Shown here piece by piece: positions 2,031 through 24,488 of a stretch of 35,091 nt of DNA. The position numbers and the translations under genes were made by a program. Under the pieces are notes generated by a model that was not told the DNA's origin, did no database searches, and was given only the letters and a program-made list of their open reading frames with translations. The DNA comes from Chloroflexota bacterium (lineage in GTDB: Bacteria; Chloroflexota; Dehalococcoidia; Dehalococcoidales; UBA2162): contig JACPSA010000041.1 in assembly GCA_016193545.1 (NCBI GenBank), positions 1 through 35,091 on the forward strand, written 5' to 3'. Positions within the stretch are counted from its first letter, which is position 1. Every line of letters begins with the position of its first letter.

Positions 2031-2426
2031 CTACATCTGGACAAATGGTGATTTCTGTATATGTTTGTCTTTGGCAGCCAGCAGTGCCAGGTCTACGGCA
2101 ATAGCTTCTTGCCTGATTTTGTCCTGAAGTGTGGTCAGTTCCGATTCGAGAGTCGAAACCCTCAAGGCCACCGCATCAATCGCTCTGGTCGCTTCTTCTC
2201 TGACCTTGGCTACGGCTGCGTCGGCGGCTTTCTTAGCGGCTTCGGCGGCTCTCTCGCCGCTTATCTTTGCTTAGGCCGCGGCTTCCCTCGATTCTCTGGC
2301 GGCAGCTTGCGCTTGCCTTACCGCTTCCTCTACCCGCTTGATATAATTTTCAAGCTCATCCAGTATCTCCGGTAGAGGTTTGGTCATTATCTTGGGCTGT
2401 CTTGATTCCTCTGTTTTAGTGGTCAT
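2031..2426 (-). pseudogene. Ala-rich coiled-coil protein, PLPxILDE-motif family, paralog 1, interrupted by an in-frame TAA
   Basis: Not in the ORF track; the antisense ORF 2061..2375(+) is its mirror. AAGGAG lies 8 nt upstream of the ATG at 2426. The translation is MTTKTEESRQPKIMTKPLPEILDELENYIKRVEEAVRQAQAAARESREAAA*AKISGERAAEAAKKAADAAVAKV...VQM*. The internal TAA is at 2273-2271, where the paralogs have Glu (GAA). Confidence 0.7.
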
Positions 2427-2540
2427 TTAACTATCTCCTTCTCTGCCGGTTGGACGGTTCCCGGTCCCAGAGTATTAGTGGGAACTCTGAACCGCCAGTC
2501 AACCAACCTGATTAACTCTTATCCTGTAGGTCACTAAAGG

Positions 2541-2897
2541 CTATGTCTTGCCCCCAAGTTTTTTCTGCACGCTGGCGGTAGCTTCGATGATTGTCGAGTT
2601 TAATAGTCTGGCCAGTTCTAATGCGTCTGTGGCTGTCTTCTGGACTCTGGAGATTGCTTCAGCAGCAACTCTGGCGGCTTCGCCGGCAGCCTTTTCACCA
2701 GCCTGGCGGGCCTCTTCAGCCGCTTTTCTGGCATCTATAGCAGCTTCATTGGCTGCCAGGATACTATCATCAATCTCATCTAGGATTTGCGGAAGCGGCT
2801 GAGTCATTATTTTCTTTTGTTTGACATCGCCGGTCATTTTGCTCTCCCCCGGGTTCGGCTTTCCCGTTGTTTTCTTTGGGTCGTCTCTTTTGAACAT
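2541..2897 (-). CDS. Ala-rich coiled-coil protein, PLPxILDE-motif family, paralog 2 (small, no TM segment)
   Basis: The track ORF is 2541..2921. GGAGG (2907-2903) sits 5 nt upstream of the second ATG (2897), so MFKRDDPKK... is the likelier start. It contains KKIMTQPLPQILDEIDD followed by a helical Ala/Glu/Lys/Arg-rich sequence. Confidence 0.7.
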   Translation of the reverse strand: MFKRDDPKKTTGKPNPGESKMTGDVKQKKIMTQPLPQILDEIDDSILAANEAAIDARKAAEEARQAGEKAAGEAARVAAEAISRVQKTATDALELARLLNSTIIEATASVQKKLGGKT

Positions 2898-3120
2898 TGT
2901 GCCCTCCGTTAGTTCTTTCATCTATTCAAGCCCGTAGCAATAATAATAACGGTGACGGAACTTGAATGTTACCTTCTATATCGATTGAAAGGGCCATTCT
3001 CTGCAGAACAATCCTTCTATCTTGTGTTTAGTATCTCGGTTATCTATTCTGGACATCCAGACGTTATGCTCTAGTGCCGGGTCTTTCGGCTAACTAAGCG
3101 CCGTTGGCCCATTTACAATC

Positions 3121-3492
3121 TCACCTTGACAAACCATAGTAAGATATGAAGGTGCTGAAAGCTACCGAGGCAACCACGGCCCCCAGAATCAGTACTATGG
3201 CAAAGACGAGGAACTCCCATGAAGAGAGGAGTTTTTTCAATAGTGCCGCGGGGAGGGCTGCTGCAGCCTTGGCCCCAGCCTCTTCAGCTACCTTTGCCGC
3301 TGCAGCCGCAATCTCTCTGGCTGTTCTGGCTACTTCCTCAGCATGGGCCGCAGCCTCTGCGGTCACTCTCTTGGCTTCCTCGGCCGCCGCTCTAGCGGCT
3401 GCCGCTACCGCTTCAGCCCGTCGGGCGGCTGCCTCTGCTGCCCTCTTGGCCTCTTCGGCTTGGCGGGCCGCTTCAGCGCCTGCTGCCTTCAT
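3121..3492 (-). CDS. C-terminal fragment of the large Ala-rich protein, carrying the only TM (tail-anchor) segment
   Basis: 123-aa ORF, Ala-rich, ending in LLSSWEFLVFAIVLILGAVVASVAFSTFISYYGLSR (a hydrophobic helix). Its frame stays open upstream of the ATG and reads as a continuation of the 3489..5204 repeats (AKKAAEAAGLRAEKAAQAAREAAEAAAREAKEAAQAAMKAAG...). Confidence 0.75.
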   Translation of the reverse strand: MKAAGAEAARQAEEAKRAAEAAARRAEAVAAAARAAAEEAKRVTAEAAAHAEEVARTAREIAAAAAKVAEEAGAKAAAALPAALLKKLLSSWEFLVFAIVLILGAVVASVAFSTFISYYGLSR

Positions 3493-5204
3493 TGCTGCCT
3501 GAGCGGCTTCTTTAGCCTCTCTGGCCGCCGCTTCAGCTGCTTCTCTAGCGGCTTGGGCCGCTTTCTCGGCTCTGAGTCCGGCGGCTTCCGCTGCCTTCTT
3601 GGCGCTTCTCTGGCCGCGGCTTCGGCTGCTTCTCTAGCGGCTTGAGCCGCTTTCTCGGCTCTGAGTCCGGCGGCTTCCGCTGCCTTCTTGGCTTCTTCGG
3701 CTTTGCGGGCAGCTTCCTCACTAGCGGCCTTCATTGCCTTGGCCGCCGCCTCTTCAGCCTCTTTGGATGCCTTCTTAGCGGCTGCAGCGGCTACTTCAGC
3801 AGCTCTGGATAATTCTTCGGCTCTGGTCACTAACTGGTGTAAAGCCTGTGATGCGGCCTCGATGGCTTCATCACCGGCGATATCAGCTTGCTCTGCCTTC
3901 TGGCGAATCTTATCGGCGACATCGAAGCCCCTGGCTGCCGTTTCTTTAGCCTCTTGTCCGGCCTCTTCAGTCCTCTCGGCAATTTTCCCTGAAACCCGGG
4001 TAGCCGCTCCGATAGCTTCGTCACCAGCAGCAACAGCCGCCTGTGCTTTAATTCGCGTATCTTCTGCCGCCTGGAAAGCGGTGCCGGCGGCTCTTTTTGC
4101 TTTTCTACCTGCCTGCTCCGACTTGGTCGCTGTATCCGCGGCTAATTTCTTGGCAAGTTCAGCCCGGGCGGCTTTAGCTTCCTTGGCGCTGGCATCAGCC
4201 TGTTTGCCGGCAGCATTAGCCGTTTCAATGGCTTCCTGTACTGCCTGAGTGGCCAGCCTGGCATTCTCTTCAGCTCTAGCTGCCGTTTCCTCAGCCGCCT
4301 GAGCTGCAGCTGCGGCTGCTTCCTTGGCAGCGAGGTCCACATCCTCAGACCTTCTGGTGGCTTCCTCAGCGGCAGCTATGGCCGCTCTGGCTGTCTTTTC
4401 AGCTTTGGCGGCGGCTTCTTCAGCCCTTTCGGCCGCCTCTCTGGCCGCGCGAATAGCTTCTTCGGCCGCTTCTTCGGCTCTTCGGGCCGCTTCTTCCGCA
4501 GCCATGGTAGCTGCCTCGGCGGCTTTCTGGGCTGCCTCAGCGGCGGCCGTGGCAGCAGCGCCTGCTTCCTCGGCTCTTTGGGCAGCTGCTTCAGCAGCTA
4601 GGGTGGCTGCCTCCCCGGCTTCTTTGGCCAGTCTGGCGGCTTCTTCAGCGGCCTTGGTGGCGGCTTCTCCGGCTTTTCTGGCTAGTTTGGCTGCCTCCTC
4701 TGCCCTCTTGGCAGCGTCAGCGGCGGCTTTTTCGGCCGCTTTGGTGGCTGCCTGAGCTGCGGCCGTGGCTGCGGCTCCTGCTTGCTCGGCTCTTCTAGCC
4801 GCTGCTTCAGCCGCCTTCTTAAATTCTTCAATGGCTTTCTTAGCGGCTTTATCGGCCTCTTCTGCCTTCCTGGCGGCGGCTTCGGCCGCTAGCCTGGCAG
4901 CTCTAGCTGTCTCTTCAGCTTTGGCGGCGGCGGCTGCCGCCGAACGAGTCGCGGTCTCGGCCGCTTTCTCGCCAGCTAAGCGAGCTTCCTCAGCCCTTTT
5001 TTCGGCCTCTAAAGAAGCTTTAGTGGCTGCTTCGGCGGCCTGCCTGGCTGACCGGGCGGCTTCCTCAGCCCTACGGGCAGCTTCGGCTACCGTACGAATA
5101 TTGTCATCCATCTCGTCGAGAATCTGGGGAAGGGGTCTTGCCATTATTTTGGGTGGCGCCGGTGGCTTCTGCTCGCCGGATGGCCTGACATTTCTGGTAG
5201 TCAT
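3489..5204 (-). CDS. Large Ala-rich coiled-coil protein, PLPxILDE-motif family, paralog 3 (frameshifted near its 3' end)
   Basis: 571-aa ORF. AAGGAGG lies 6 nt upstream of the ATG at 5204. The N-terminus is MTTRNVRPSGEQKPPAPPKIMARPLPQILDEMDDNIR. The body is very Ala-rich with AEEAAR/AKKAAE periodicity and internal duplications (RRAEQAGAAATAAAQAATKAAE versus QRAEEAGAAATAAAEAAQKAAE). The last ~37 aa (PRRQRKPPDSEPRKRPKPLEKQLKRRPERLKKPLRQQ) are an out-of-frame reading of the same repeat. Confidence 0.8.
   Translation of the reverse strand: MTTRNVRPSGEQKPPAPPKIMARPLPQILDEMDDNIRTVAEAARRAEEAARSARQAAEAATKASLEAEKRAEEARLAGEKAAETATRSAAAAAAKAEETARAARLAAEAAARKAEEADKAAKKAIEEFKKAAEAAARRAEQAGAAATAAAQAATKAAEKAAADAAKRAEEAAKLARKAGEAATKAAEEAARLAKEAGEAATLAAEAAAQRAEEAGAAATAAAEAAQKAAEAATMAAEEAARRAEEAAEEAIRAAREAAERAEEAAAKAEKTARAAIAAAEEATRRSEDVDLAAKEAAAAAAQAAEETAARAEENARLATQAVQEAIETANAAGKQADASAKEAKAARAELAKKLAADTATKSEQAGRKAKRAAGTAFQAAEDTRIKAQAAVAAGDEAIGAATRVSGKIAERTEEAGQEAKETAARGFDVADKIRQKAEQADIAGDEAIEAASQALHQLVTRAEELSRAAEVAAAAAKKASKEAEEAAAKAMKAASEEAARKAEEAKKAAEAAGLRAEKAAQAAREAAEAAAREAPRRQRKPPDSEPRKRPKPLEKQLKRRPERLKKPLRQQ
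3514..3691. repeat. Two tandem copies of an 89-bp unit inside the Ala-rich gene
   Basis: Copy 3514-3602 versus copy 3603-3691. CCTTCTTGG recurs at 3594-3602 and 3683-3691, giving a period of 89. About 6 mismatches per 89. The period is not a multiple of 3. Confidence 0.85.
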
Positions 5205-5290
5205 TATTGTCCTCCTTGCCTTAGAGCATGAAATATCTCATGCGCCTGTTTTATAGGGAGCTCGTTAGCGGGCGTCATACTATCGAAAAT

Positions 5291-5341: not shown

Positions 5342-5370
5342 ATAGTATCACCCCTAAATGGAAAAGTCAA
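5342..5370 (-). promoter_or_regulatory. Candidate sigma70-type promoter for the large Ala-rich gene
   Basis: In the minus sense: TTGACT (5370-5365), 17-nt spacer, TACTAT (5347-5342). It lies about 140 nt upstream of the ATG at 5204. Confidence 0.35.
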
Positions 5371-5586: not shown

Positions 5587-7170
5587 CTAAGAGACTGTTC
5601 TGCTAACCCGGGCAGCGGCCGGTGTAAAAGTCATCTTGAGGAGGCGGGAATAGAGACCTCCTTGCGCGGAGAGTGCCTCATGACGTCCGACTTCAACAAT
5701 CCGTCCGTTGTCGAGTACGATGATACGGTCAGCATTGCGCGCTGTCGACAGGCGGTGGGCAATGACTATGGCCGTTCTCCCTTTCAGTAATTTTTCCAGA
5801 GCTTGCTGGATGATATGTTCACTGTAGGAGTCCACGTTAGCCGTGGCTTCATCCAGCAGCAGGATGACCGGGTTAACCAGCAGGGCACGGGCAAAGCTGA
5901 TGAGTTGACGCTGGCCCATACTCAAGTTCTGCCCTCGTTCCTGCAGCCAGGTATCATATCCCTTTTCCATCTTGATGATAAAATCATGGGCACCGACAGT
6001 GCTGGCGGCGGCGACTATCTCCTCGTCGGTAGCTTCCAGGTTACCGTAGCGTATGTTATCCCGAATAGTGCCTGAGAAGAGGAACGGCTCCCGAGGCACC
6101 AGCCCCAGCTGCCGTCGGTAGGCAGTCTGGTCAATCTGGCGCAGGTCATTACCATCAATCAATATCCGTCCACTGGTGGCGTCATAGAAACGGTCAATAA
6201 GGCTGACGATGGTGCTCTTACCCGCCCCTGTAGGTCCCACCAGCGCCACCGTCTCTCCCGGTGAAATATGCAGGTTAATGTCATGAAGGACCTCCAGCCC
6301 GGGTTCATAGCTGAAAGAGATATCTTCAAATTTAATTTCACCTTTTAAGTGAGGTACCTTGATGCTTTGAGAGCTATCCGCTATTTCCGGCTTTACGTCC
6401 AGAAGCTCGAAGATACGGTTGCCTGAGGCCATTGCCCTCTGTAGCTGGGTATATTCCATGGTCATCGTTCTAATCGGGTCAAAGAACTCCTGTATATAGA
6501 GAGCGAAAGCCACCAGAGTGCCCACGAGAAGTGTTCCCCGCAGTACACTCATGCCACCGAAGATAATAATCAGCGCCATAGCCAGTGCCACCAGTAATTC
6601 CACCACCGGCATCATTATTGCTGATAGCTTGGCTGCTTCAAGGTTGGCTTCAAAATGGGCACGGTTGACCTGTTCAAAACGCCGGGAATTCTCATTCTCC
6701 CGGGACAGGCTCTGGATAACCCGGACGCCGGAGATATTTTCCTGGAGAGCAGTATTTACCGCTGATATGGCACGCCTCACCTTAATGAAAGACTGGCGTA
6801 CCCTCTTTTGCCAGAAGAATATGAATAGAAAGAGGAGGGGGATAACGGATAAAGTGACCAGAGCCAGGTTAAAGGCCATGGCAAACATAGCTGCGACTAT
6901 TGCTATCAGGCTAATTATCTCGCCGGCTACCCAGAAAGCTCCGGAATCAAGAAAGTCACCCAGTTGCTCTACGTCATTCTGCACCCGGGACATGATGCGG
7001 CCGACTTCATTATGGTCGAAAAAACTCACGGAAAGGCGCTGCAGGTGGTCGAAGACCTGGCTGCGCAGACTGAGCAGGATACCCTGCCCGATAGTTGCTT
7101 CGGCTCTGATTTGGGTGTAATAAGACGCCAGGTTAAGCAGGGAATTGCCCAGGAAAAGCAGGATAATCAT
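5587..7170 (-). CDS. ABC exporter, fused permease/ATPase half-transporter (MsbA/MdlB-like), N-terminally truncated
   Basis: 527-aa ORF with the ABC TMD, Walker A GPTGAGKST, signature LSMGQRQ and Walker B ILLLDEATA. The ORF begins inside TM2, so the first ~55 residues (TM1) are missing when compared with its partner. Confidence 0.85.
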   Translation of the reverse strand: MIILLFLGNSLLNLASYYTQIRAEATIGQGILLSLRSQVFDHLQRLSVSFFDHNEVGRIMSRVQNDVEQLGDFLDSGAFWVAGEIISLIAIVAAMFAMAFNLALVTLSVIPLLFLFIFFWQKRVRQSFIKVRRAISAVNTALQENISGVRVIQSLSRENENSRRFEQVNRAHFEANLEAAKLSAIMMPVVELLVALAMALIIIFGGMSVLRGTLLVGTLVAFALYIQEFFDPIRTMTMEYTQLQRAMASGNRIFELLDVKPEIADSSQSIKVPHLKGEIKFEDISFSYEPGLEVLHDINLHISPGETVALVGPTGAGKSTIVSLIDRFYDATSGRILIDGNDLRQIDQTAYRRQLGLVPREPFLFSGTIRDNIRYGNLEATDEEIVAAASTVGAHDFIIKMEKGYDTWLQERGQNLSMGQRQLISFARALLVNPVILLLDEATANVDSYSEHIIQQALEKLLKGRTAIVIAHRLSTARNADRIIVLDNGRIVEVGRHEALSAQGGLYSRLLKMTFTPAAARVSRTVS

Positions 7171-9139
7171 GTTGAGTCCAGCCAGATTGCCGGCAACGCA
7201 GGGGTACGGCTACCTTATACTGGGTAAAGTATTTTATCAGGCGAGCGACGATACGTGAATCATAAGGCTTGCCGTAGATAATATCATCGGAGCCACTCAG
7301 GCTGCTTCTCAGCCGCCCCTTTCTGGTACTTTTAGAATCAATGTTATTGTTGTCAGCAGATGGAATGGGCACTGGCTCCAGGGCAACCGTAGTCGCCACC
7401 GGTTCTGTCCAGTCTTCCTGATGCTGAAACTGGAGACGGAAGAGTTGCTGGTAGAATTCGTTGCTGGCAAGAAGCTCCTGGTGTGTGCCCTGCCCGACGA
7501 TGCGCCCGTCCTTGAGTACCAGGATAATGTCGGCCATCTGTATCGAGCGCAGGCGTTGAGCGATAACGAAAGTAGTCCGGCCTCTCAGTAGCTCGGTCAA
7601 TGCCTGCTGGATGAAGTATTCGGTCTCCGTATCGACACTGGACGTCGAATCATCCATTATCATGATGCGGGGGTTGAGCAGTATCGAGCGAGCGATAGCC
7701 AGTCTCTGCTTCTGCCCGCCGGAGAGAGTTATCCCCCTCTCGCCTACCCACGTCTCGTAGCCATCGGGTAAACTCATAATAAAGTCATGTAGCTGGGTGG
7801 CTTTGGTGGCATGTATGATTTCGTCCGTGATAGCTTTCGGGCGGCCGTAACTAATGTTTTCCCGGATGGTGGCGGAAAAGAGAAAGGTATCCTGCTGCAC
7901 AATACCGACATGACGGCGTAAGGACGCCAGTGATAAGTCCCGAACATCTATGCCGTCAATAGTGATGCGGCCATCGGTAACATCATAAAAGCGCGGTATC
8001 AGATTGGCTATGGTTGATTTGCCGCTGCCACTGGCCCCAACCAGAGCCACCATCTGGCCCGGTTTAACTTCAAAATTGATGTCCTTCAAGACTGCGCCGT
8101 GGGAACCGTAATCAAAGGAGACATTCTCAAAGCGGACCATGCCCTTGATTTCATTGATGTCGATAGCATCAGGCTTCTCGGTTACGGGGGATACCTCGTC
8201 CAGAATCTCGAATACACGCTGCCCGGAAGACATTGCTCTTGAGAAGAGTATCGTCAGCCACCCCAGCATCCGTACCGGCATGTTGAGCATGACAAGGTAG
8301 AGTAAAAACTGGGCCAGTTCACCTTGGGTGAGGACTCCGGCTACCACCTGCTGGCCCCCGTACCACAGGATACCCCCCATTGCCAGCAGCAGTGCAAAGC
8401 TCATCACCGGGCTGTTGGCAGCGAGCAGGTTGTTGGCTTCTATCTCCTGGTTATATATAGTCTCGGCCTGTTTGCGGAACTTCTGGTTCTCAAAATCCTG
8501 GCGGGCGAAAGCCCGTACTATTCTGGCGCCGACCAGGTTTTCCTGGACAATAGTGCCGAGAACACCGATACCCTGCTGAATTTTCATCCATAGTGTCCGC
8601 AGTTTCCGGTTAATGGCAATAGTCCTGAAGGAGATAAAAGGTAGAACGCTTAAGCTGAGCAGCGCCAGTTGCCAGTTGAGTAAGAGCAGTAAGACAGTAA
8701 TTGCCACCAGCAGGACCAGGAAATAGACCCCCCGAAGCAAAGCGAAACCGACAAACATGCGTACTCCGTCGACATCGACGGTTGCCCGGGACATCAGTTG
8801 ACCGGTCTGCGAACGGTCGTGAAAGGCGTAGCTGAGCCGTTGCAGGTGGTCATAAATGATATTGCGCAGGTCATAAGCCACTCTCTGAGAAAGGAACTCA
8901 GCCAGATAGCTCTGCCAGTAGCTAAGCAGACTGCGTAGAAGTCCAGCGACAGCAATACCCAGGGCGGTGAGGACAATGGCCCTGGTCTGGCCTGAGCCTA
9001 GCGCGAGGTCTATTGCCTGGCCGGTAAGGCGGGGTATCAATACGGCCAGCCCGGCTCCCGCAAACAGACAGACGTAGGTCACCAGCGCCCGTGGCCAGTA
9101 TTTCCAGAATAGCGCCGCTATTCGCCAGAAGATACGCAT
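7133..9139 (-). CDS. ABC exporter, fused permease/ATPase half-transporter (partner subunit) with an abnormal ~90-aa C-terminal extension
   Basis: 668-aa ORF with Walker A GASGSGKST, signature LSGGQKQR and Walker B IMIMDDSTS. After the usual end (...FYQQLFRLQFQ) it continues in frame into ...GKPYDSRIVARLIKYFTQYKV. That stretch resembles the N-terminus of the downstream subunit (compare its own MRIFWRIAALFWKYWPRAL). Confidence 0.85.
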   Translation of the reverse strand: MRIFWRIAALFWKYWPRALVTYVCLFAGAGLAVLIPRLTGQAIDLALGSGQTRAIVLTALGIAVAGLLRSLLSYWQSYLAEFLSQRVAYDLRNIIYDHLQRLSYAFHDRSQTGQLMSRATVDVDGVRMFVGFALLRGVYFLVLLVAITVLLLLLNWQLALLSLSVLPFISFRTIAINRKLRTLWMKIQQGIGVLGTIVQENLVGARIVRAFARQDFENQKFRKQAETIYNQEIEANNLLAANSPVMSFALLLAMGGILWYGGQQVVAGVLTQGELAQFLLYLVMLNMPVRMLGWLTILFSRAMSSGQRVFEILDEVSPVTEKPDAIDINEIKGMVRFENVSFDYGSHGAVLKDINFEVKPGQMVALVGASGSGKSTIANLIPRFYDVTDGRITIDGIDVRDLSLASLRRHVGIVQQDTFLFSATIRENISYGRPKAITDEIIHATKATQLHDFIMSLPDGYETWVGERGITLSGGQKQRLAIARSILLNPRIMIMDDSTSSVDTETEYFIQQALTELLRGRTTFVIAQRLRSIQMADIILVLKDGRIVGQGTHQELLASNEFYQQLFRLQFQHQEDWTEPVATTVALEPVPIPSADNNNIDSKSTRKGRLRSSLSGSDDIIYGKPYDSRIVARLIKYFTQYKVAVPLRCRQSGWTQHDYPAFPGQFPA

Positions 9140-9935: not shown

Positions 9936-10844
9936 TTACTTCAGCATATCCTCGAATTTCTCCCAGCGCTCCTTGGTCTGCTGCGGGGGAATATGCACGA
10001 AATGGCATTTCATGCAGCTTTCGTTGCCTACGGCGCCCATCAGTTCTCCTATCGTTTTGGCATCAGGCGGAGTCGCGTCTACCGCTTTGCCAATCTGGTC
10101 AATCATGGCTAGTACGCTCGGGTCGACAAAGTAGGTTCTGGGCGTATTGTGACAGGCGGCACAACCCGCCGGCAGGGTCTTAAACCGGACACTAAACTCC
10201 TTAAAATGCTGGCGAGCCTTGTCCAGTTGTCCTTGCTGAAGGTCGTTGGACACTCCGCTAAAGCTGGTGGCTAGAGCTATCATATAGTCTCTCCAAGCCA
10301 TTGGTTTATTGGTTACCGGATCATTTACTTTGACTATCTTGAAATCAGGCCAGTGGTATTTCTGAAAAACTTTGCTCTGGAATAGCAAATGGCATGAGCC
10401 GCAAACCTCTCCTACCTGCCCCATGGCTGGCCCGACTTTGGCCGGGTCACCGCTGGCCAGGGCCTGGCCCAGAGTATCCACCGGGGTCATGGGAAACTTG
10501 TCCTTCCACTCCGGGACCATGTCGGACATTTTGATATATTGTTTCTGGAAAGCGTCAAAATTGGCTTTTGCCCCGGCAATATCTCCTTCCTGGAGGTCTA
10601 TTCCAATGCCCTCAAAGGGACCGGAAAGGCCGAACATTTCAAGTAAATAGACGGGGGCGGGGGCTTTAGGTGGGAAGAGATTGTCCAGCGACGCCGGCGG
10701 CGGTCCGGCAATTTCCCTGAGCATTTTGTTCTCCTCTGTCAGCTTGTCTACCTGAGGCTGGAGGTTCTGACCACAGGATACTAGAGCCGCCAGCAGCAGC
10801 ACCAGACTAGCGATGATACCTAATATCAGAATAGCTTTCTTCAT
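9936..10844 (-). CDS. Lipoprotein c-type cytochrome with three CxxCH heme-binding motifs
   Basis: The track ORF starts at TTG 10868. AGGGGG lies upstream of ATG 10844, giving MKKAILILGIIASLVLLLAALVSCGQ (signal peptide plus lipobox). The CxxCH motifs are CGSCH (10403-10389), CAACH (10163-10149) and CMKCH (10016-10002). Confidence 0.8.
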   Translation of the reverse strand: MKKAILILGIIASLVLLLAALVSCGQNLQPQVDKLTEENKMLREIAGPPPASLDNLFPPKAPAPVYLLEMFGLSGPFEGIGIDLQEGDIAGAKANFDAFQKQYIKMSDMVPEWKDKFPMTPVDTLGQALASGDPAKVGPAMGQVGEVCGSCHLLFQSKVFQKYHWPDFKIVKVNDPVTNKPMAWRDYMIALATSFSGVSNDLQQGQLDKARQHFKEFSVRFKTLPAGCAACHNTPRTYFVDPSVLAMIDQIGKAVDATPPDAKTIGELMGAVGNESCMKCHFVHIPPQQTKERWEKFEDMLK

Positions 10845-11139
10845 AATACTACCCCCTTCAATTCGCAAGAAATCGCAATAACAACATTACCTCTGACTGT
10901 AATTGCCCATCAGTCCTTATATGGGTAATGGTGAGCATACCACCAATATGTCAATCTGGGTATACTGAAAATAGCTCATTGTTGGCTACATAGAAGTGCC
11001 TGTTTCCTGACCTTAAGTGCGTATCATTATGGTAATGTGGTATCAGCAGGTAATACTTTCCGGCGTAACCAGCAGGCTTCATTCCAGTCAGCTTATTTCT
11101 AACTCTGACGTTGAAGCTGTTATATACATGAGGCTCGGC

Positions 11140-19736: not shown

Positions 19737-22229
19737 TCAGCCTAGATGTAACAGGCGCTTGAGCAGGGCACGGTAGACATCACGCCAGGACTGCTGCAGC
19801 CTTATCTCCTGTAGCAGGAATAACGTCTTTCTGGGGCTGAACCGGCTCTGTATGTAAGCCTGGGCGATATCATCGATAGCTTCAGTCTGTGCCGGAATAA
19901 CCGACGCCAGCCGGGTACAGTATTCCAGGGGTGTCTCGTACGGGTTGGGTCCCGATTTGACTAATGAAGCCAGCCAGCTCATCCTGGCATAAACATTGAA
20001 GGCGTTGTCGGCTCCGGTGAAGCGCCGCAGCCAGCGATAAAGGAGTATTGCCGCAGCCAGCATCACTAATAGCTGGATACTGATTGTGGGGAAAGGTGTG
20101 ACTTGCCCCGGCTTTTTAGAGAGGCTGTTATCATCCGAGGCAGCACCCGAGGGGCCGCCTAGCTCGTCTTCATCTTCAGAAGTGGCAATGCTGGAGTTGG
20201 CGTTTGTTTCATCGGGGATGTTTACCTGGTTTTCCAGACGGGTAGTCGCCTCGAATTCTACCCAGCCGTAGCCGGGGAAGTAAATCTCCGGCCAGGCATG
20301 ATAGTCCCTTGCTCGTACGATAAGCTTGCCGGTATTTTTATCTAATTTGCCGTGGAGATAGCCGGTATTGAGCCGGGTGGGTACGCCTATTGAACGGAGC
20401 ATAACGGCCATGCTTGAGGCGAAGTTGACACAATCGCCCTCTTGCTGCTTGAAGATAAAATAGTCTACAGGGTCGACCTCTGCCGGAAAAGACTCCACCG
20501 CTTCGTTATATTTGAACCTGTTGAGGAAGCGTTTAATAATTATCGCTTTGTCATAGGCCGTTACAGCTCCCTCGGTAAGTTCTTTGCTGAAGCGTTTGAC
20601 ACGTTCCGGGAGACTGTCAGGTAATTGCAGATAGTAATCAATAATCTGCTGAGTATAGTTGTCGCCGGCTTGAGACAGTTCGTCAGGTGTGGCAGTAAGA
20701 GTGCTGGCTGTCAGTTCATAGCGCTGATTAGGTTTTAGCAGTTGTGGTGCGATGATGGCAACAATGTCTCCGGCGTTTCCATGTGCCTGGCTTGTTCCAT
20801 CTGTGGTTATGTTATTGCTCTGGGGTATTAACCCGGGGATACCTGGTGGTGGGAGGCTGGAACTATCGGTGACGCTGCCCGGCGGTATGTTCGCTGGCTG
20901 AGGTTCTTTAGTCTTGTTTAGCTCCGGTAGCGTATCTACCGGCGGTGGAACTTGTCCGGAGGGAGCAGGCAAGGTCTCATTTGTAGAAGGAATGGAGTCA
21001 GCAGTGGTGGCCGGTAAGATGGTGTTGGGTATAGACGCTGTAGAAGTCTCCAGTAAAACCGGGATATTGGTAGATACAAATTCGCCGGCAGTCAGCAGGA
21101 CATCTGTTTTTAGTCTGGTTTCCACGGTATACGTCATCTTCTGGCGTTTAGGTGCCTCGGTTTCAGTGATAGGTGTTTCCGGTTTGAGCATGTGATTGGT
21201 CATAGCATTGCTGGTCCATCCCCAGGAGTAGTAAGTATCGTACCTTCTGGTGCGCCAGTAAGAAGGCCGCTCAGCGGTAATGACGAATTGTATCTCATTA
21301 CTGTAGTCGATATTATCGCTGAAAGATAGTTTTTCTTGGTCACTGCTTCTGATGATATTCCATTTTCCGGGCACGGCAGCAAAGAGATTTAACCAGTAAT
21401 TTTCGGCATTCTTCGCCCAGGGGATGGCGGCGTTAGTCACGGTTTCCAGCTGCTTAACCTGGATTTCAGGTGTGAACCAGGCGCTGGAAACGGTCAGAAG
21501 GCTGATAATAACTACTGAAGCGGTGAAGTAGACCATACCATGTTTAGGATAATCGGTACCATATTTCTGGAATTGGCTATGTTCTCGGTACAGATTTGTC
21601 AAGCCAATCAATAACATTGACATTAAGAAATAAATAATGAAGAAGTGATAGTATTGTTGAGTCAGATTAGCAAGATTGACCAGAATGATAATGGCGCCCA
21701 GAGAAACTGCTACCCACGCATTTTGTTTGCGCAAGATTAGCCATGTTGAGATATTACCCGTCAGCCAGCTGAGGAAAACAAGAAATACGGCGAAGTGCAG
21801 TATTCCCTCGCTGGGCTTGGTCAGGCTGATTGCCTGCCACCAGGACTTCAAAATAGCTATCAAGTGATTAGAGTCCGGAGTGGTGTCCGGCAGGGGTAAG
21901 AGAATAGCTGTTTGCCACACGGTAATCACAACTCCGAGGACTATGATGATGGAAAGTGTTACGGCATTATGAACTCGGGTTTTGACCAGTAGCCAGACGG
22001 TCAGTATGGCCAGGCTGAGGACCAGTGTCAGCGATGGTTGCGGTGTTATCCACTGGGCTTGCTCAACGGAACGCAGAGCGATAGCTAGAGTCAGAAAAAC
22101 AAGCAAGACGCTTACCCACTCTGGCCCGCTGCCCAGCCAGAACCTGAGACCCGATGGCAATAGTCGGTATCTTCGGGTTATTCCGGTCAAATAAGCTATG
22201 AATCTGCTTTCTTTCTGGTTCCTATTCAA
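19737..22229 (-). CDS. Transglutaminase-like (TgpA-type) multi-pass membrane protein
   Basis: 830 aa. It has N-terminal polytopic TM helices and a Pro/Ser/Thr-rich low-complexity segment. The transglutaminase core is QQEGDCVNFASSMAVMLRSIGVPTR ... DYHAWPEIYFPGYGWVEFEAT. A C-terminal TM helix follows. Confidence 0.85.
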   Translation of the reverse strand: MNRNQKESRFIAYLTGITRRYRLLPSGLRFWLGSGPEWVSVLLVFLTLAIALRSVEQAQWITPQPSLTLVLSLAILTVWLLVKTRVHNAVTLSIIIVLGVVITVWQTAILLPLPDTTPDSNHLIAILKSWWQAISLTKPSEGILHFAVFLVFLSWLTGNISTWLILRKQNAWVAVSLGAIIILVNLANLTQQYYHFFIIYFLMSMLLIGLTNLYREHSQFQKYGTDYPKHGMVYFTASVVIISLLTVSSAWFTPEIQVKQLETVTNAAIPWAKNAENYWLNLFAAVPGKWNIIRSSDQEKLSFSDNIDYSNEIQFVITAERPSYWRTRRYDTYYSWGWTSNAMTNHMLKPETPITETEAPKRQKMTYTVETRLKTDVLLTAGEFVSTNIPVLLETSTASIPNTILPATTADSIPSTNETLPAPSGQVPPPVDTLPELNKTKEPQPANIPPGSVTDSSSLPPPGIPGLIPQSNNITTDGTSQAHGNAGDIVAIIAPQLLKPNQRYELTASTLTATPDELSQAGDNYTQQIIDYYLQLPDSLPERVKRFSKELTEGAVTAYDKAIIIKRFLNRFKYNEAVESFPAEVDPVDYFIFKQQEGDCVNFASSMAVMLRSIGVPTRLNTGYLHGKLDKNTGKLIVRARDYHAWPEIYFPGYGWVEFEATTRLENQVNIPDETNANSSIATSEDEDELGGPSGAASDDNSLSKKPGQVTPFPTISIQLLVMLAAAILLYRWLRRFTGADNAFNVYARMSWLASLVKSGPNPYETPLEYCTRLASVIPAQTEAIDDIAQAYIQSRFSPRKTLFLLQEIRLQQSWRDVYRALLKRLLHLG

Positions 22230-22242
22230 GACTCGCTGTACC

Positions 22243-23469
22243 TCAAATATATCTCGTGTGCAGGGAGGCGACTCTGTTATCCAGAGCTCTGGCTAATTCG
22301 TCTCCTTTTCTGACGGTATAGACTTGGATGCCGTTGGCACTAAGGTTGTGTGCGGTGTTTAGTTGGCCGGCGGTACCGCCAAAGCTGGCTGGTTCGAGCA
22401 GGATAGCCACTGCCAGGTTGTCACGGCCTTTGAGCTGCCGGATAGCGGTCACCATCTCTTTACTGTCTGAAGGTGTGATAACAACGGCGATAGAATTGCC
22501 GTTAAAGTGTTCCATCTGGCTGGAAATCAATTGGCTGACGGGTGTCTCTCCGCTTGCTTTCATTAAGGCGAGGGCTTCCATCAGTCGCCCCAAGTGTTGC
22601 TCTCCCCTCTCAGGTGGGAAAAAGTAAGGTCGGTCGCCTGAAGCCGTCAATCCCACCTGCATGCCGCTATCGATATATTTTTTTATGAGAGAAGCGGCAA
22701 TAGTGATAGCATATTCTTCGGTGGTCTCGTCGCCTTCACCAAGTTGAGGGGCCTGTTGCATATCGATGATAATCCAAACGCTTTCCGAACCGCTATGAGA
22801 ATGGTCAGTATCAAACATCTTGACCATTAGCTTGCCGGCGTGAGCGGTACTGTGCCAGTGGATGTGGTTAAGACTGTCGCCGGTAGTGTATTCTCGTACG
22901 CTGGAGGCATTAGGACTGATTTGACTAAATGACCGGTAGCCGGAGTTATAACCGAAGACACTGAGAGGCGATGATTCAAAGAAGGGTAATTGCAGTGTTG
23001 CCGGGTAGATAAGGATAGGGTGTGATTTTCCCAGGTTTCGTTGCCGGGAGAAAAGACCGAACGGGTCCGTGGCGGTAACAGTAATCGAGCCCAGGCTGTA
23101 TTGGCCCCGGCGTCGGCAATGAACATTGCTCTGCCAGCAGTAAGAGCCTCCCGCAGGCAAATTCAATACCGTCATGTTGTGATATCCCGGTATATCGGTA
23201 GTCTCGGCTACTTTAAGCAATAGTTTGGGTAACTTGCTCTGGTTGAATAGAGTCACTTCTTTGTCGAATCGCTCACCAACCTGGCAATTGTCCGGCGGTT
23301 GACTAGCTTGAATCCTGATACCACGCAGTCCGAACAGTGCCCACAGGTAGCTGATTAAAAGTACCAGTGCTAGAAGGACGGAGAGTCTCAATACCAGTAC
23401 CAGACCCTCAGCTAGAGCTAGAAACAGGAGAATCGGGAGCAGGATAAAAATGATAGTTCGGATTTTCAT
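22243..23469 (-). CDS. DUF58 (vWA-like) protein
   Basis: 408 aa with two N-terminal TM helices and the DUF58 signature VREYTTGDSLNHIHWHSTAHAGKLMVKMFD. Confidence 0.85.
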   Translation of the reverse strand: MKIRTIIFILLPILLFLALAEGLVLVLRLSVLLALVLLISYLWALFGLRGIRIQASQPPDNCQVGERFDKEVTLFNQSKLPKLLLKVAETTDIPGYHNMTVLNLPAGGSYCWQSNVHCRRRGQYSLGSITVTATDPFGLFSRQRNLGKSHPILIYPATLQLPFFESSPLSVFGYNSGYRSFSQISPNASSVREYTTGDSLNHIHWHSTAHAGKLMVKMFDTDHSHSGSESVWIIIDMQQAPQLGEGDETTEEYAITIAASLIKKYIDSGMQVGLTASGDRPYFFPPERGEQHLGRLMEALALMKASGETPVSQLISSQMEHFNGNSIAVVITPSDSKEMVTAIRQLKGRDNLAVAILLEPASFGGTAGQLNTAHNLSANGIQVYTVRKGDELARALDNRVASLHTRYI

Positions 23470-23522
23470 AGTTTTGATGCGGAGATTGTATTTAGTGACA
23501 AACCGCCTGAGCCAGTATCGTT

Positions 23523-24488
23523 TTACCTTTTGGCTTTGGCAAATGTTCCGGGTACGGGTACCGTTTCCAGTAGTTCATCAATAGTAACTTTACCATCCTT
23601 ATCCTGTGAATCTGACGAGTGGACTATTATCCGATGAGCCAGGACCGGTTTGGCTAAAATTTTGACGTCATCCGGTAAAACAAAGTCGCGTCCCTGGATT
23701 AAAGCATAGGCCTGGGCGGTGCGGAAAAGACCTAAAGCACCCCGGGGGGAAGCTCCCAGGTGTATCATCGGATTATGGCGTGTTGCGGCCACCAATGCTA
23801 CGATGTACTGCTTTACTAAATCATCCACGTAAATAGCCTTCACGGCTTGCTGAAGCGTCAAAACGTCAGCCGCATTAGCCACCGGACTAAGTTGTTCGAT
23901 AGGATGAGTATACTGTTGTTTTTCCATAATGGTTATTTCGTCAGCTGGAGATGGATAGCCCAGAGATATCCGGAGCAGAAACCTGTCCAGTTGTGTCTCC
24001 GGAAGGGGGAAAGTGCCTTCATATTCTATGGGATTTTGGGTGGCTAAAATGTGAAAGGGAGGAGGTATCTGATGGGTAACACCATCTACGGTCACTTGTC
24101 CTTCCTCCATACATTCCAAGAGAGCTGATTGAACCTTGGGTGTAGCCCGGTTGATTTCGTCAGCCAGGACTATTTGTGCCATGATTGGACCGGGGCGAAA
24201 CTCGAAGTCGGCTGTTTTCTGGTTATAGACCGAAACTCCGGTAATGTCGCCGGGCAGCATATCAGGAGTGAACTGGATTCGCTTGAATGTGCAATCTATG
24301 GATTTGGCCAGGCTGCGGGCGAGCATGGTCTTACCAACGCCCGGAGCGTCCTCGATAAGCAAATGCCCTTTGGTAGTCAAAGCTATTACGGCCAGCACGA
24401 TTGCTTCCTTCTTGCCGAGAATGACTGTCCCCATGTTATCTATTATTTTCTCGGCCATCTTTTGTGCTGCTTTTGTTGAGTTCTCCAT
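23523..24488 (-). CDS. moxR: MoxR-family AAA+ ATPase
   Basis: 321 aa with Walker A APGVGKTMLA, Walker B VLADEINRA, and the ATQNPIEYEGTFPLPETQLDRF block. Confidence 0.9.
   Translation of the reverse strand: MENSTKAAQKMAEKIIDNMGTVILGKKEAIVLAVIALTTKGHLLIEDAPGVGKTMLARSLAKSIDCTFKRIQFTPDMLPGDITGVSVYNQKTADFEFRPGPIMAQIVLADEINRATPKVQSALLECMEEGQVTVDGVTHQIPPPFHILATQNPIEYEGTFPLPETQLDRFLLRISLGYPSPADEITIMEKQQYTHPIEQLSPVANAADVLTLQQAVKAIYVDDLVKQYIVALVAATRHNPMIHLGASPRGALGLFRTAQAYALIQGRDFVLPDDVKILAKPVLAHRIIVHSSDSQDKDGKVTIDELLETVPVPGTFAKAKR

Follow-up and report, generated by a model that had tools for sequence, protein, structure and literature searches.

Scy, FilP and crescentin are bacterial coiled-coil-rich cytoskeletal proteins that form very long alanine-rich rods of non-heptad periodicity and act as lineage-specific scaffolds. 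Here we describe a protein family that shares with them the long, alanine-rich, non-heptad rods and the lineage specificity. It was found through three tandem minus-strand genes, P3, P2 and P1, in a stretch of 35,091 nucleotides from a Chloroflexota bacterium of the order Dehalococcoidales (contig JACPSA010000041.1, positions 1 to 35,091; hereafter, the window). The three products have in common the N-terminal block K-I-M-x-x-P-L-P-x-I-L-D-E (the head), followed by an Ala/Glu/Lys/Arg helix, and P3 ends in a transmembrane (TM) helix. In contrast, Scy, FilP and crescentin are soluble, carry neither a tail anchor nor an invariant N-terminal head and show no sequence relationship to the family.

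Other described systems resemble single members of the family. EzrA, an FtsZ regulator of Firmicutes, is a cytoplasmic helical protein of ~560 amino acids (aa) with one TM helix, an N-terminal anchor and spectrin-like heptad bundles. P3 is likewise a cytoplasmic helical protein with a single TM helix, and P3-type genes often lie near ftsA-ftsZ; unlike EzrA, P3 is anchored by its C-terminus and carries an alanine stripe with a period of 3.60, its connection to FtsZ is by gene proximity only, and the EzrA profile (PF06160) gave no match. ZapB, a small gammaproteobacterial divisome coiled coil that binds its partner through one end, is similar to P2 in its size (roughly 80-100 residues) and in being essentially one helix, but the two are not homologous, the head motif and the paralogues are features of P2, and a divisome role for P2 is conjectural.

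In eukaryotic golgins and other tail-anchored coiled-coil tethers, a long rod connects the C-terminal tail anchor with a short, conserved capture motif at the N-terminus. The logic of the parts is the same as in P3, but golgins are eukaryotic, heptad-based and unrelated in sequence, and the likeness is an analogy only. The mycobacterial PE/PPE proteins, which are type VII secretion substrates of Actinobacteria, possess a conserved, helical and Ala-rich module at the N-terminus, which has a short signature containing Pro and is joined to many different C-termini, and adjacent paralogues pair. The family described here also presents a conserved N-terminal module on varied C-termini and paralogues encoded side by side, but no secretion system is found nearby and one of the partners is tail-anchored in the membrane. 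Long, Ala-rich helices with a membrane anchor also occur in ATP synthase subunit b and domain II of TolA, but these are N-terminally anchored, and the matches of the family to ATP-synt_B are sub-threshold and compositional. The family is best placed with the bacterial membrane-anchored coiled-coil scaffolds.

Results

A head-bearing family nearly confined to Dehalococcoidia

A previous reading of the window made from the sequence only had proposed the three genes and their shared block, and both were confirmed for P1, P2 and P3 (Table 1). The motif was found in many other genomes, so the three genes are not a mere local duplication. Using P2 as query, 347 proteins matched in a collection of 5.8 billion proteins, and none of them contained a Pfam domain. 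The few names attached to these matches were 'hypothetical protein' or generic automatic labels (e.g., ATP synthase subunit b), while the organism names were Chloroflexi or Dehalococcoidales. The motif was present in 112 of the 120 P2 homologues among the matches listed and in 119 open reading frames (ORFs) of the loci fetched from other genomes (designated with L-numbers), a recurrence far beyond chance. Scanning one genome per species yielded 104 confirmed places, and 79 loci were retained from these. They were labelled Dehalococcoidia, Dehalococcoidales, Dehalococcoidaceae, Dehalogenimonas or Chloroflexota, with the exception of one 'Peptococcaceae' metagenome-assembled genome. The head was almost invariant in ~120 proteins from the 79 species-level genomes. 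A head-only profile, run against 1.84 billion cluster representatives, retrieved 232 clusters at E ≤ 0.001, and the head was located near the N-terminus in nearly all of the 150 matches listed. One homologue, MGI2335060.1, is from Dehalogenimonas. The family is lineage-specific, nearly confined to Dehalococcoidia and under purifying selection.

Four classes share the head K-I-[ML]-x-K-P-L-P-x-I-L-D-E. The P3-type proteins (485-802 aa, ~35% Ala) carry a conserved C-terminal tail anchor, and the short tail-anchored proteins (229-296 aa) present the same head and anchor with a shorter rod. The P2-type proteins (~100 aa) consist of a single helix conserved over its full length, and the P1-type proteins (~140 aa) bear a second conserved motif, H-x-E-Q-S-P-F-[FY], at the C-terminus. 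This second motif suggests a second binding site, and P1 might be an adaptor; we take the motif to be loosely like the Q-x-x-hydrophobic-F clamp-binding motifs. The head is followed by residues that distinguish the classes and hardly vary inside any one of them (DELENYI in P1, DEIEDSI in P2 and DEMDDNI in P3). The ~50-150 residues beyond the motif are also almost invariant within each class, which would fit docking to a third party no better than it fits a co-assembly of the paralogues. The P3-P2-P1 order of the window was seen again in L001 (710, 96 and 139 aa) and L013, and the paralogue classes are ancient. The synonymous codon differences quoted for the motif by the sequence-only reading were correct, the paralogues differing there mainly at synonymous positions: over the 18 head codons, the paralogue pairs showed 8-10.5 synonymous versus 4.5-7.5 non-synonymous changes. 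P1, P2 and P3 are old copies whose heads have been kept alike at the peptide level.

A tail-anchored rod with an alanine stripe

None of the three proteins presents a hydrophobic N-terminus, in agreement with the lack of signal peptides proposed earlier. The N-terminus of P3, read directly from the sequence, is hydrophilic and basic; because there is no signal peptide, the bulk of P3 should be cytoplasmic. An extracellular or S-layer role was ruled out, as no class carries a signal peptide. P1 and P2 lack TM helices, while the single TM helix of P3 lies within ~30 residues of its C-terminus, as in tail-anchored proteins. This helix, which had been assigned only to the extreme C-terminus of the longest member, proved to be real; the juxtamembrane box and the TM segment were conserved in 45 of the 46 members of at least 400 aa. 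The P3-type tail reads A-[IL]-P-x-A-L-V-[RK]-K-V-L-[GS]-S-W-E-F, then the TM helix and then I-S-V-G-L-S. The anchor is conserved in sequence and bears a stripe of small residues (AVFGSVAISVGLS), which suggests packing between TM helices.

AlphaFold2 with the family alignment predicted that the P2 leader is disordered (predicted local distance difference test score, pLDDT, < 50 over most of residues 1-27) and that a single helix extends over residues 35-115 (block-mean pLDDT 94-99 for residues 41-110). Together with the L001 homologues and the conserved tail anchor, this model upholds the earlier picture of a cytoplasmic tail-anchored rod plus two soluble relatives with a common N-terminal handle. 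Long single helices cannot be stable alone. The hydrophobicity spectrum of 45 P3-type bodies showed one sharp peak at 3.60 residues per turn, with a power of 371 compared to ~8-12 in shuffled sequences, and the peak of P1 and P2 was also at 3.60. At 3.50, the heptad periodicity of the canonical left-handed coiled coil, the power was only ~20. When the P3 sequence of the window was written in rows of 18 residues, alanine occupied positions 0, 3, 4, 7, 10, 11 and 14 in one register over ~600 residues. The phase of this stripe drifted slowly without jumps (family mean R = 0.77, versus 0.39 when four random register shifts were introduced). Such a pattern corresponds to nearly straight helices packed through a small-residue stripe, and neither to the heptad (3.5) nor to the 11-mer lipid-binding repeat (3.67). 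The P3 rod may be either continuous, with a length of about 90 nm, or folded back.

Conservation along P3 was concentrated in the first ~150 residues, a central region of ~190 residues and the tail, while two stretches of variable length carry the repeats. In the first ~150 residues all the faces were conserved across 45 species despite the low complexity, as would be expected of packed helices and not of a spacer. The alignment of the central region, which contains invariant glycines, reached a mean column identity of 71%. In view of these two regions, the Ala-rich body, read earlier as a spacer or scaffold, is not a featureless spacer.

The plus strand opposite P3 contains four ORFs rich in Ala, Ser and Leu (3146-3502, 3688-4248, 4324-4755 and 4765-5256). 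They were rejected as genes and attributed to the GCN-rich coding strand, of which they are a by-product.

No match to described families

Searches of Pfam, NCBIfam, PADLOC and PHROGs with P1-P3 returned only sub-threshold compositional matches and, as the PDB searches gave no explanatory match either, the earlier statement that no known family can be assigned was borne out. No Pfam family matched the 571-aa ORF of P3, and its central region had neither a Pfam family nor a natural PDB match. When full-length P3 was used as homology query, all 8000 candidates were low-complexity and none scored, and the central domain alone found only 3 fragments. When the PDB was searched with profiles of the P2 family and of the central domain of P3, it gave, besides designed proteins, HAMP or transducer fragments only at E > 0.02, and the PDB sequence matches at E < 0.001 were exclusively de novo designed helical repeat proteins. 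For the P3 model, which is of low confidence, Foldseek matched designed proteins and the stalk of the Umb1 toxin, all with TM-scores ≤ 0.27, and these matches were discarded as meaningless. DivIVA (PF05103) scored 10.6 bits with P1 and 13.8 bits with P2, below its gathering score of 28 bits, and ATP synthase subunit b (PF00430, ATP-synt_B) scored 13.9 bits with P2, below its cut-off of 28 bits. The matches of P1-P3 to the PADLOC anti-phage defence models were compositional only, with E-values of 0.002 or weaker.

The protective and lipid-binding families that the sequence-only reading had named for comparison (LEA/apolipoprotein, phasin and PspA/Vipp1) showed no homology either. The PspA_IM30 profile (PF04012) gave no match to P1, P2 or P3 at E up to 1, no LEA_4 or apolipoprotein profile of Pfam matched them, and phasin was absent among their Pfam and NCBIfam matches. 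In the literature searched on the motif, on coiled-coil or tail-anchored proteins of Dehalococcoidia and on division, we found no description of the family.

Pairing of the paralogues and proximity to ftsA-ftsZ

A tail-anchored member adjoins a soluble member in 35 of 73 species-level loci, and this pairing occurs in seven orders or orientations (e.g., TM>P1>, TM>P2>, P2>TM> and the divergent P2<TM>). It constitutes the strongest evidence that the paralogues work together. Solitary P2 genes had no conserved neighbours beyond one strain group.

Dehalococcoidia are devoid of peptidoglycan and of nearly all of the dcw cluster, and in Dehalococcoidales the dcw and peptidoglycan genes are gone but ftsA and ftsZ are retained (PMC10608941). 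Among 50 tail-anchored genes, 17 had ftsA or ftsZ within 4.4 kb, and the arrangements fell into four layouts. P3 was directly upstream of ftsA-ftsZ in seven loci; in L051 the order was the same with a DUF5343-like gene in between; two loci presented the divergent layout ftsZ<ftsA< >DUF5343-like>P2>P3; and at least eight loci had terC-rlmN-HTH in between. FtsA identity was 50-66% between layout classes and 62-94% within them and, therefore, these loci represent three or four independent lineages and not 17. The interval from the P3-type gene to ftsA has two conserved elements, a bidirectional hairpin terminator that hardly differs between loci (AAAAATGCCCTG...CAGGGCATTTTT) and a promoter-like site (TTGACG, 17-nt spacer, TAGTAT) (L048:7858-7889 and the equivalent positions in L049, L054, L057, L059, L060 and L064). 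A P3-ftsA-ftsZ operon was ruled out because both elements were present in 7 out of 7 loci, so P3 and ftsA are neighbours and do not form an operon. Altogether, the link of the family with division is suggestive but not established.

The DUF5343-like gene (~230-260 aa, weak DUF5343 match) was present at L001:1997-2689, L043:5003-5782 and about 16 other loci. It is divergent beside ftsA in many Dehalococcoidia loci and directly upstream of P2-P3 in two, and it could be another uncharacterised division-associated gene.

The head on other architectures

Among the 150 listed representatives of the head-only profile matches, the head was also found on proteins other than the four classes. Mini tail-anchored proteins of ~100-200 aa carried it, and in P0159 (L088:255-968, a short contig) the head and a short alanine-rich coil were fused to a TIR_2 domain (56.8 bits); this fusion, which is outside the window, matched the PADLOC TIR models. 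In L063 (5986-6387) the head and a short coil form the N-terminus of a HicB protein (phrog_497, E = 9e-15) that lacks the usual C-terminal DNA-binding domain. Its gene directly follows hicA, and the pair (L063:5780-6387) is inserted between leuC and leuD, inside the leu operon. A second head-HicB-like protein was found with a HicA-like gene downstream (L089:1291-2359). Six representatives carried the head on a winged-helix-like domain, a fold with weak Pfam support, and one of their genes was located in a toxin-antitoxin island with PemK/RHH and HicB genes. Another head preceded a sub-threshold DUF433 match. Most of the fusions carry the P3-type head, and in several of them the next 50-130 residues match the conserved rod segment at the N-terminus of P3. 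In addition, a phage-like contig (L091:3339-3671; IMG/VR UViG_3300012931_000014) encodes a 110-aa protein with the head (PIMNKPLPTILDELEAAI), the sole viral match in 2.9 million contigs; a phage may here have copied the tag from its host.

Organization and disruptions of the window genes

The features of the three genes are listed in Table 1. Each gene is preceded by a strong Shine-Dalgarno sequence, and a terminator-like hairpin (consensus match only) is located downstream of P1. The most likely start of P2 is at 2897 (MFKRDD), matching the start of the P2 homologues. As for the lengths reported before, the 118 aa of P2 were right; P1 does comprise 131 codons but is stopped in frame, which had been missed; and the 694 aa given for P3 are the mere sum of its two ORFs (571 + 123), while frame repair gives 664 aa.

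Table 1. Positions of the family genes and their parts in the window
Feature	Position	Strand	Remarks
P3, alanine-rich rod gene, tail-anchored	3121-5204	minus	intact 710-aa homologue L001:5685-7817; 45 orthologues, 485-802 aa
P3 ORFs as broken here	3489-5204 (571 aa) and 3121-3492 (123 aa)	minus	
P3 leader, 18 residues, basic, Pro-rich	5151-5204	minus	precedes the head motif
P3 head motif KIMARPLPQILDEMDDNI, residues 19-36	5097-5150	minus	class consensus PKIMxKPLPQILDEMDDNIRAAAEAARRAEEAAR
P3 16-residue shared block KIMARPLPQILDEMDD	5103-5150	minus	
P3 conserved central region, residues 283-470	3795-4358	minus	two A-G-D-E-A-I boxes and invariant glycines; conservation map
P3 89-bp tandem repeat, 2 copies	3518-3692	minus	shifts the P3 frame
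P3 juxtamembrane box LPAALLKKLLSSWE	3214-3255	minus	first part of the tail anchor, 3145-3255
P3 TM helix FLVFAIVLILGAVVASVAFSTFI	3145-3213	minus	7 residues, then stop
Promoter-like site upstream of P3: TTGACT, 17-nt spacer, TACTAT, with TG	5342-5370	minus	consensus match only
P2, intact soluble paralogue, 118 aa: disordered leader, then one continuous helix (predicted)	2541-2897	minus	longest ORF reaches 2921
P2 head motif KIMTQPLPQILDEIDDSI	2760-2813	minus	
P2 16-residue shared block KIMTQPLPQILDEIDD	2766-2813	minus	
P1, soluble paralogue, 131 codons, in-frame TAA inside	2031-2426	minus	intact in L086, L087 and L001
P1 head motif KIMTKPLPEILDELENYI	2340-2393	minus	
P1 16-residue shared block KIMTKPLPEILDELEN	2346-2393	minus	
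P1 C-terminal motif KHIQKSPFVQM	2034-2066	minus	family consensus [KR]-H-[IVLM]-E-Q-S-P-F-[FY]

The P1 reading frame is interrupted by a TAA at 2271-2273 (codon 52) without any frameshift. L086, from a 98.9%-identical strain, presents CAA (Gln) at this codon and an intact 131-aa gene, and more distant homologues also have CAA, so that the TAA represents a nonsense mutation or else an error in the base call. In P3, the two copies of the 89-bp repeat (96% matches) differ at 3 of the first 86 positions, and the repeat length is not a multiple of three. With one copy removed, the reading frame continues without interruption for 664 aa and finishes with the TM helix. Because L087, an 84%-identical relative, carries an in-frame repeat at the same place and the L086 contig stops inside the repeat, an assembly error is as likely as a real lesion. 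The ratio of non-synonymous to synonymous substitution rates (dN/dS) against the 84%-identical relative was 0.11-0.13 for P1, P2 and the P3 tail, also downstream of both lesions.

The family genes are flanked by a SpoU methyltransferase gene and an ABC-exporter pair. The latter (ORFs 5587-7170 and 7133-9139, minus strand) looks frame-broken at about 7130-7180: the upstream gene continues without a stop into a sequence (YDSRIVARLIKYFTQYK) that resembles the start of the second transporter, whose gene goes on in another frame. Three disruptions within 7 kb suggest a problem of sequence quality rather than biology. That the locus is decaying and nonfunctional in the window genome, with P1 cut at codon 52 and P3 deprived of its membrane anchor, is a possible but doubtful explanation. 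It would account for the TAA, the frame-breaking repeat and the frame break of the transporter pair, but P1 is intact in the 98.9%-identical strain, dN/dS is low even downstream of the lesions, and repeats of this kind, such as the one inside which the L086 contig stops, are a classic site of assembly errors.

Elsewhere in the window, and unrelated to the family, a minus-strand cluster (19737-24488) encodes a MoxR-type AAA ATPase, a DUF58 protein and a transglutaminase-like protein, and a separate gene (9936-10868) encodes a multi-haem cytochrome c-like protein.

Discussion

The reading that we tentatively favour is that P1, P2 and P3 would be paralogous subunits of a Dehalococcoidia-specific, membrane-anchored helical-rod assembly. 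Each protein comprises a short disordered leader, the invariant head and a long alpha-helix, which is nearly straight and has an alanine stripe that recurs every 18 residues; the Pro-Leu-Pro and the acidic residues of the head start the helix. The conserved C-terminal tail of P3 fixes it to the membrane on the cytoplasmic side. The analysis shows the family itself, its architecture, conservation and periodicity and the linkage of its genes. We infer, with less than even confidence, both the co-assembly and the cellular role: the common head, together with the conserved part of the rod that follows it, might be a shared assembly or docking module, through which the soluble paralogues and, in the same way, the head-tagged HicB, TIR and winged-helix-like proteins of other genomes would join the tail-anchored subunit, and the assembly might serve as a membrane skeleton or division scaffold in peptidoglycan-less cells.

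Several observations weigh against this proposal. AlphaFold2 run on the single sequence of P3 residues 1-480 gave four helices with three breaks (pLDDT 72), which conflicts with a continuous rod. In the fetched flanks, 33 of the 50 tail-anchored genes had neither ftsA nor ftsZ, and these two genes were not found in the 35-kb window. Where P3 directly precedes ftsA, the strong terminator and the promoter-like site separate them, and part of the P3-ftsA synteny could come from shared ancestry. Two of the three window genes, P1 and P3, are disrupted. Finally, a generic oligomerisation module whose carriers have no cellular role in common would also be compatible with the fusions of the head to parts of toxin-antitoxin systems.

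The alternative that survives best, although we regard it as rather unlikely, is that the head is a docking peptide on a spacer, as the sequence-only reading had it. It would bind one separate conserved partner (e.g., FtsA, FtsZ or another hub), the rods would set the distance to the membrane, and the paralogues would compete for or share this partner rather than bind each other. A 12-residue core that is far more conserved than the rest, identical across classes, always N-terminal behind a disordered leader and grafted onto unrelated C-terminal domains is what this explanation predicts; the head-bearing viral protein would be expected of a phage mimic of a host docking signal, and the proximity to ftsA-ftsZ points in the same direction. 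Nevertheless, no partner gene co-occurs consistently, as only ftsA/ftsZ and the DUF5343-like gene recur, and in a minority of loci. Moreover, the class-specific conservation over 50-150 aa beyond the motif would be needless in a pure spacer, and the local FtsZ C-terminal peptides (ELDMPSFLR) are only loosely like the head. The head was rejected as a mimic of the FtsZ C-terminal peptide ELD[MV]PSF[LF]R, which shares with LPQIL only a hydrophobic-P-x-hydrophobic-hydrophobic outline and has opposite flanking charges.

We consider it unlikely that the head and the first rod segment are just a generic, lineage-specific coiled-coil oligomerisation module that nucleates a parallel dimer or trimer. 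P1-P3, the HicB, TIR and winged-helix fusions and the mini tail-anchored proteins would then have unrelated jobs, with P1-P3 outside division. The orthology of the four classes, conserved across the whole lineage, and the pairing of tail-anchored and soluble members, tandem or divergent, which has survived many rearrangements and is present in 35 of 73 loci, argue otherwise, and the K-I-M-x-K part is invariant even though it is unstructured and outside the helix. On the other hand, the fused domains are ones that need oligomerisation (HicB without its DNA-binding domain beside hicA, TIR, and the winged-helix-like domain in a toxin-antitoxin island), proline and acidic residues at a helix start, as in the head, are classical N-capping features, and the linkage to ftsA is partial.

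An explanation by amphipathic proteins with a protective or lipid-binding function (LEA, apolipoprotein, phasin or PspA/Vipp1 type) is highly improbable: the Ala/Glu/Lys-rich amphipathic composition and one distant head-bearing protein with a sub-threshold PspA_IM30 match (22 bits, cut-off 33.9) speak for it, but no model of these families matches P1-P3 at E up to 1, the period is 3.60 with an 18-residue repeat instead of the ~3.67 of the 11-residue repeat of Group 3 LEA, apolipoprotein and perilipin proteins, P2 is predicted as one uninterrupted helix and not as the helical hairpin core of the PspA/ESCRT-III fold, and the alanine stripe is too weakly hydrophobic for membrane insertion.

The favoured membrane-anchored assembly can be extended to a bolder and clearly less probable form, in which the tail-anchored alanine-stripe rods, reaching about 100 nm if they are continuous, would be a previously unknown cytoskeletal system. 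The head would be its universal docking and assembly tag, recruiting P1, P2 and head-tagged cargo (HicB antitoxins, TIR enzymes and winged-helix-like proteins); the system would replace part of the membrane-organising or divisome-tethering role lost with the dcw cluster, and a phage would have copied the tag.

Dehalococcoidia are globally abundant and important for bioremediation. Lineage-wide, under purifying selection, membrane-anchored and often encoded beside ftsA-ftsZ, the family represents a testable candidate for the missing scaffold of the wall-less Dehalococcoidia. An alanine stripe that repeats almost perfectly every 18 residues for hundreds of residues is unusual as a natural design, and an invariant head placed on unrelated C-terminal domains would be a new modular tag in bacteria.

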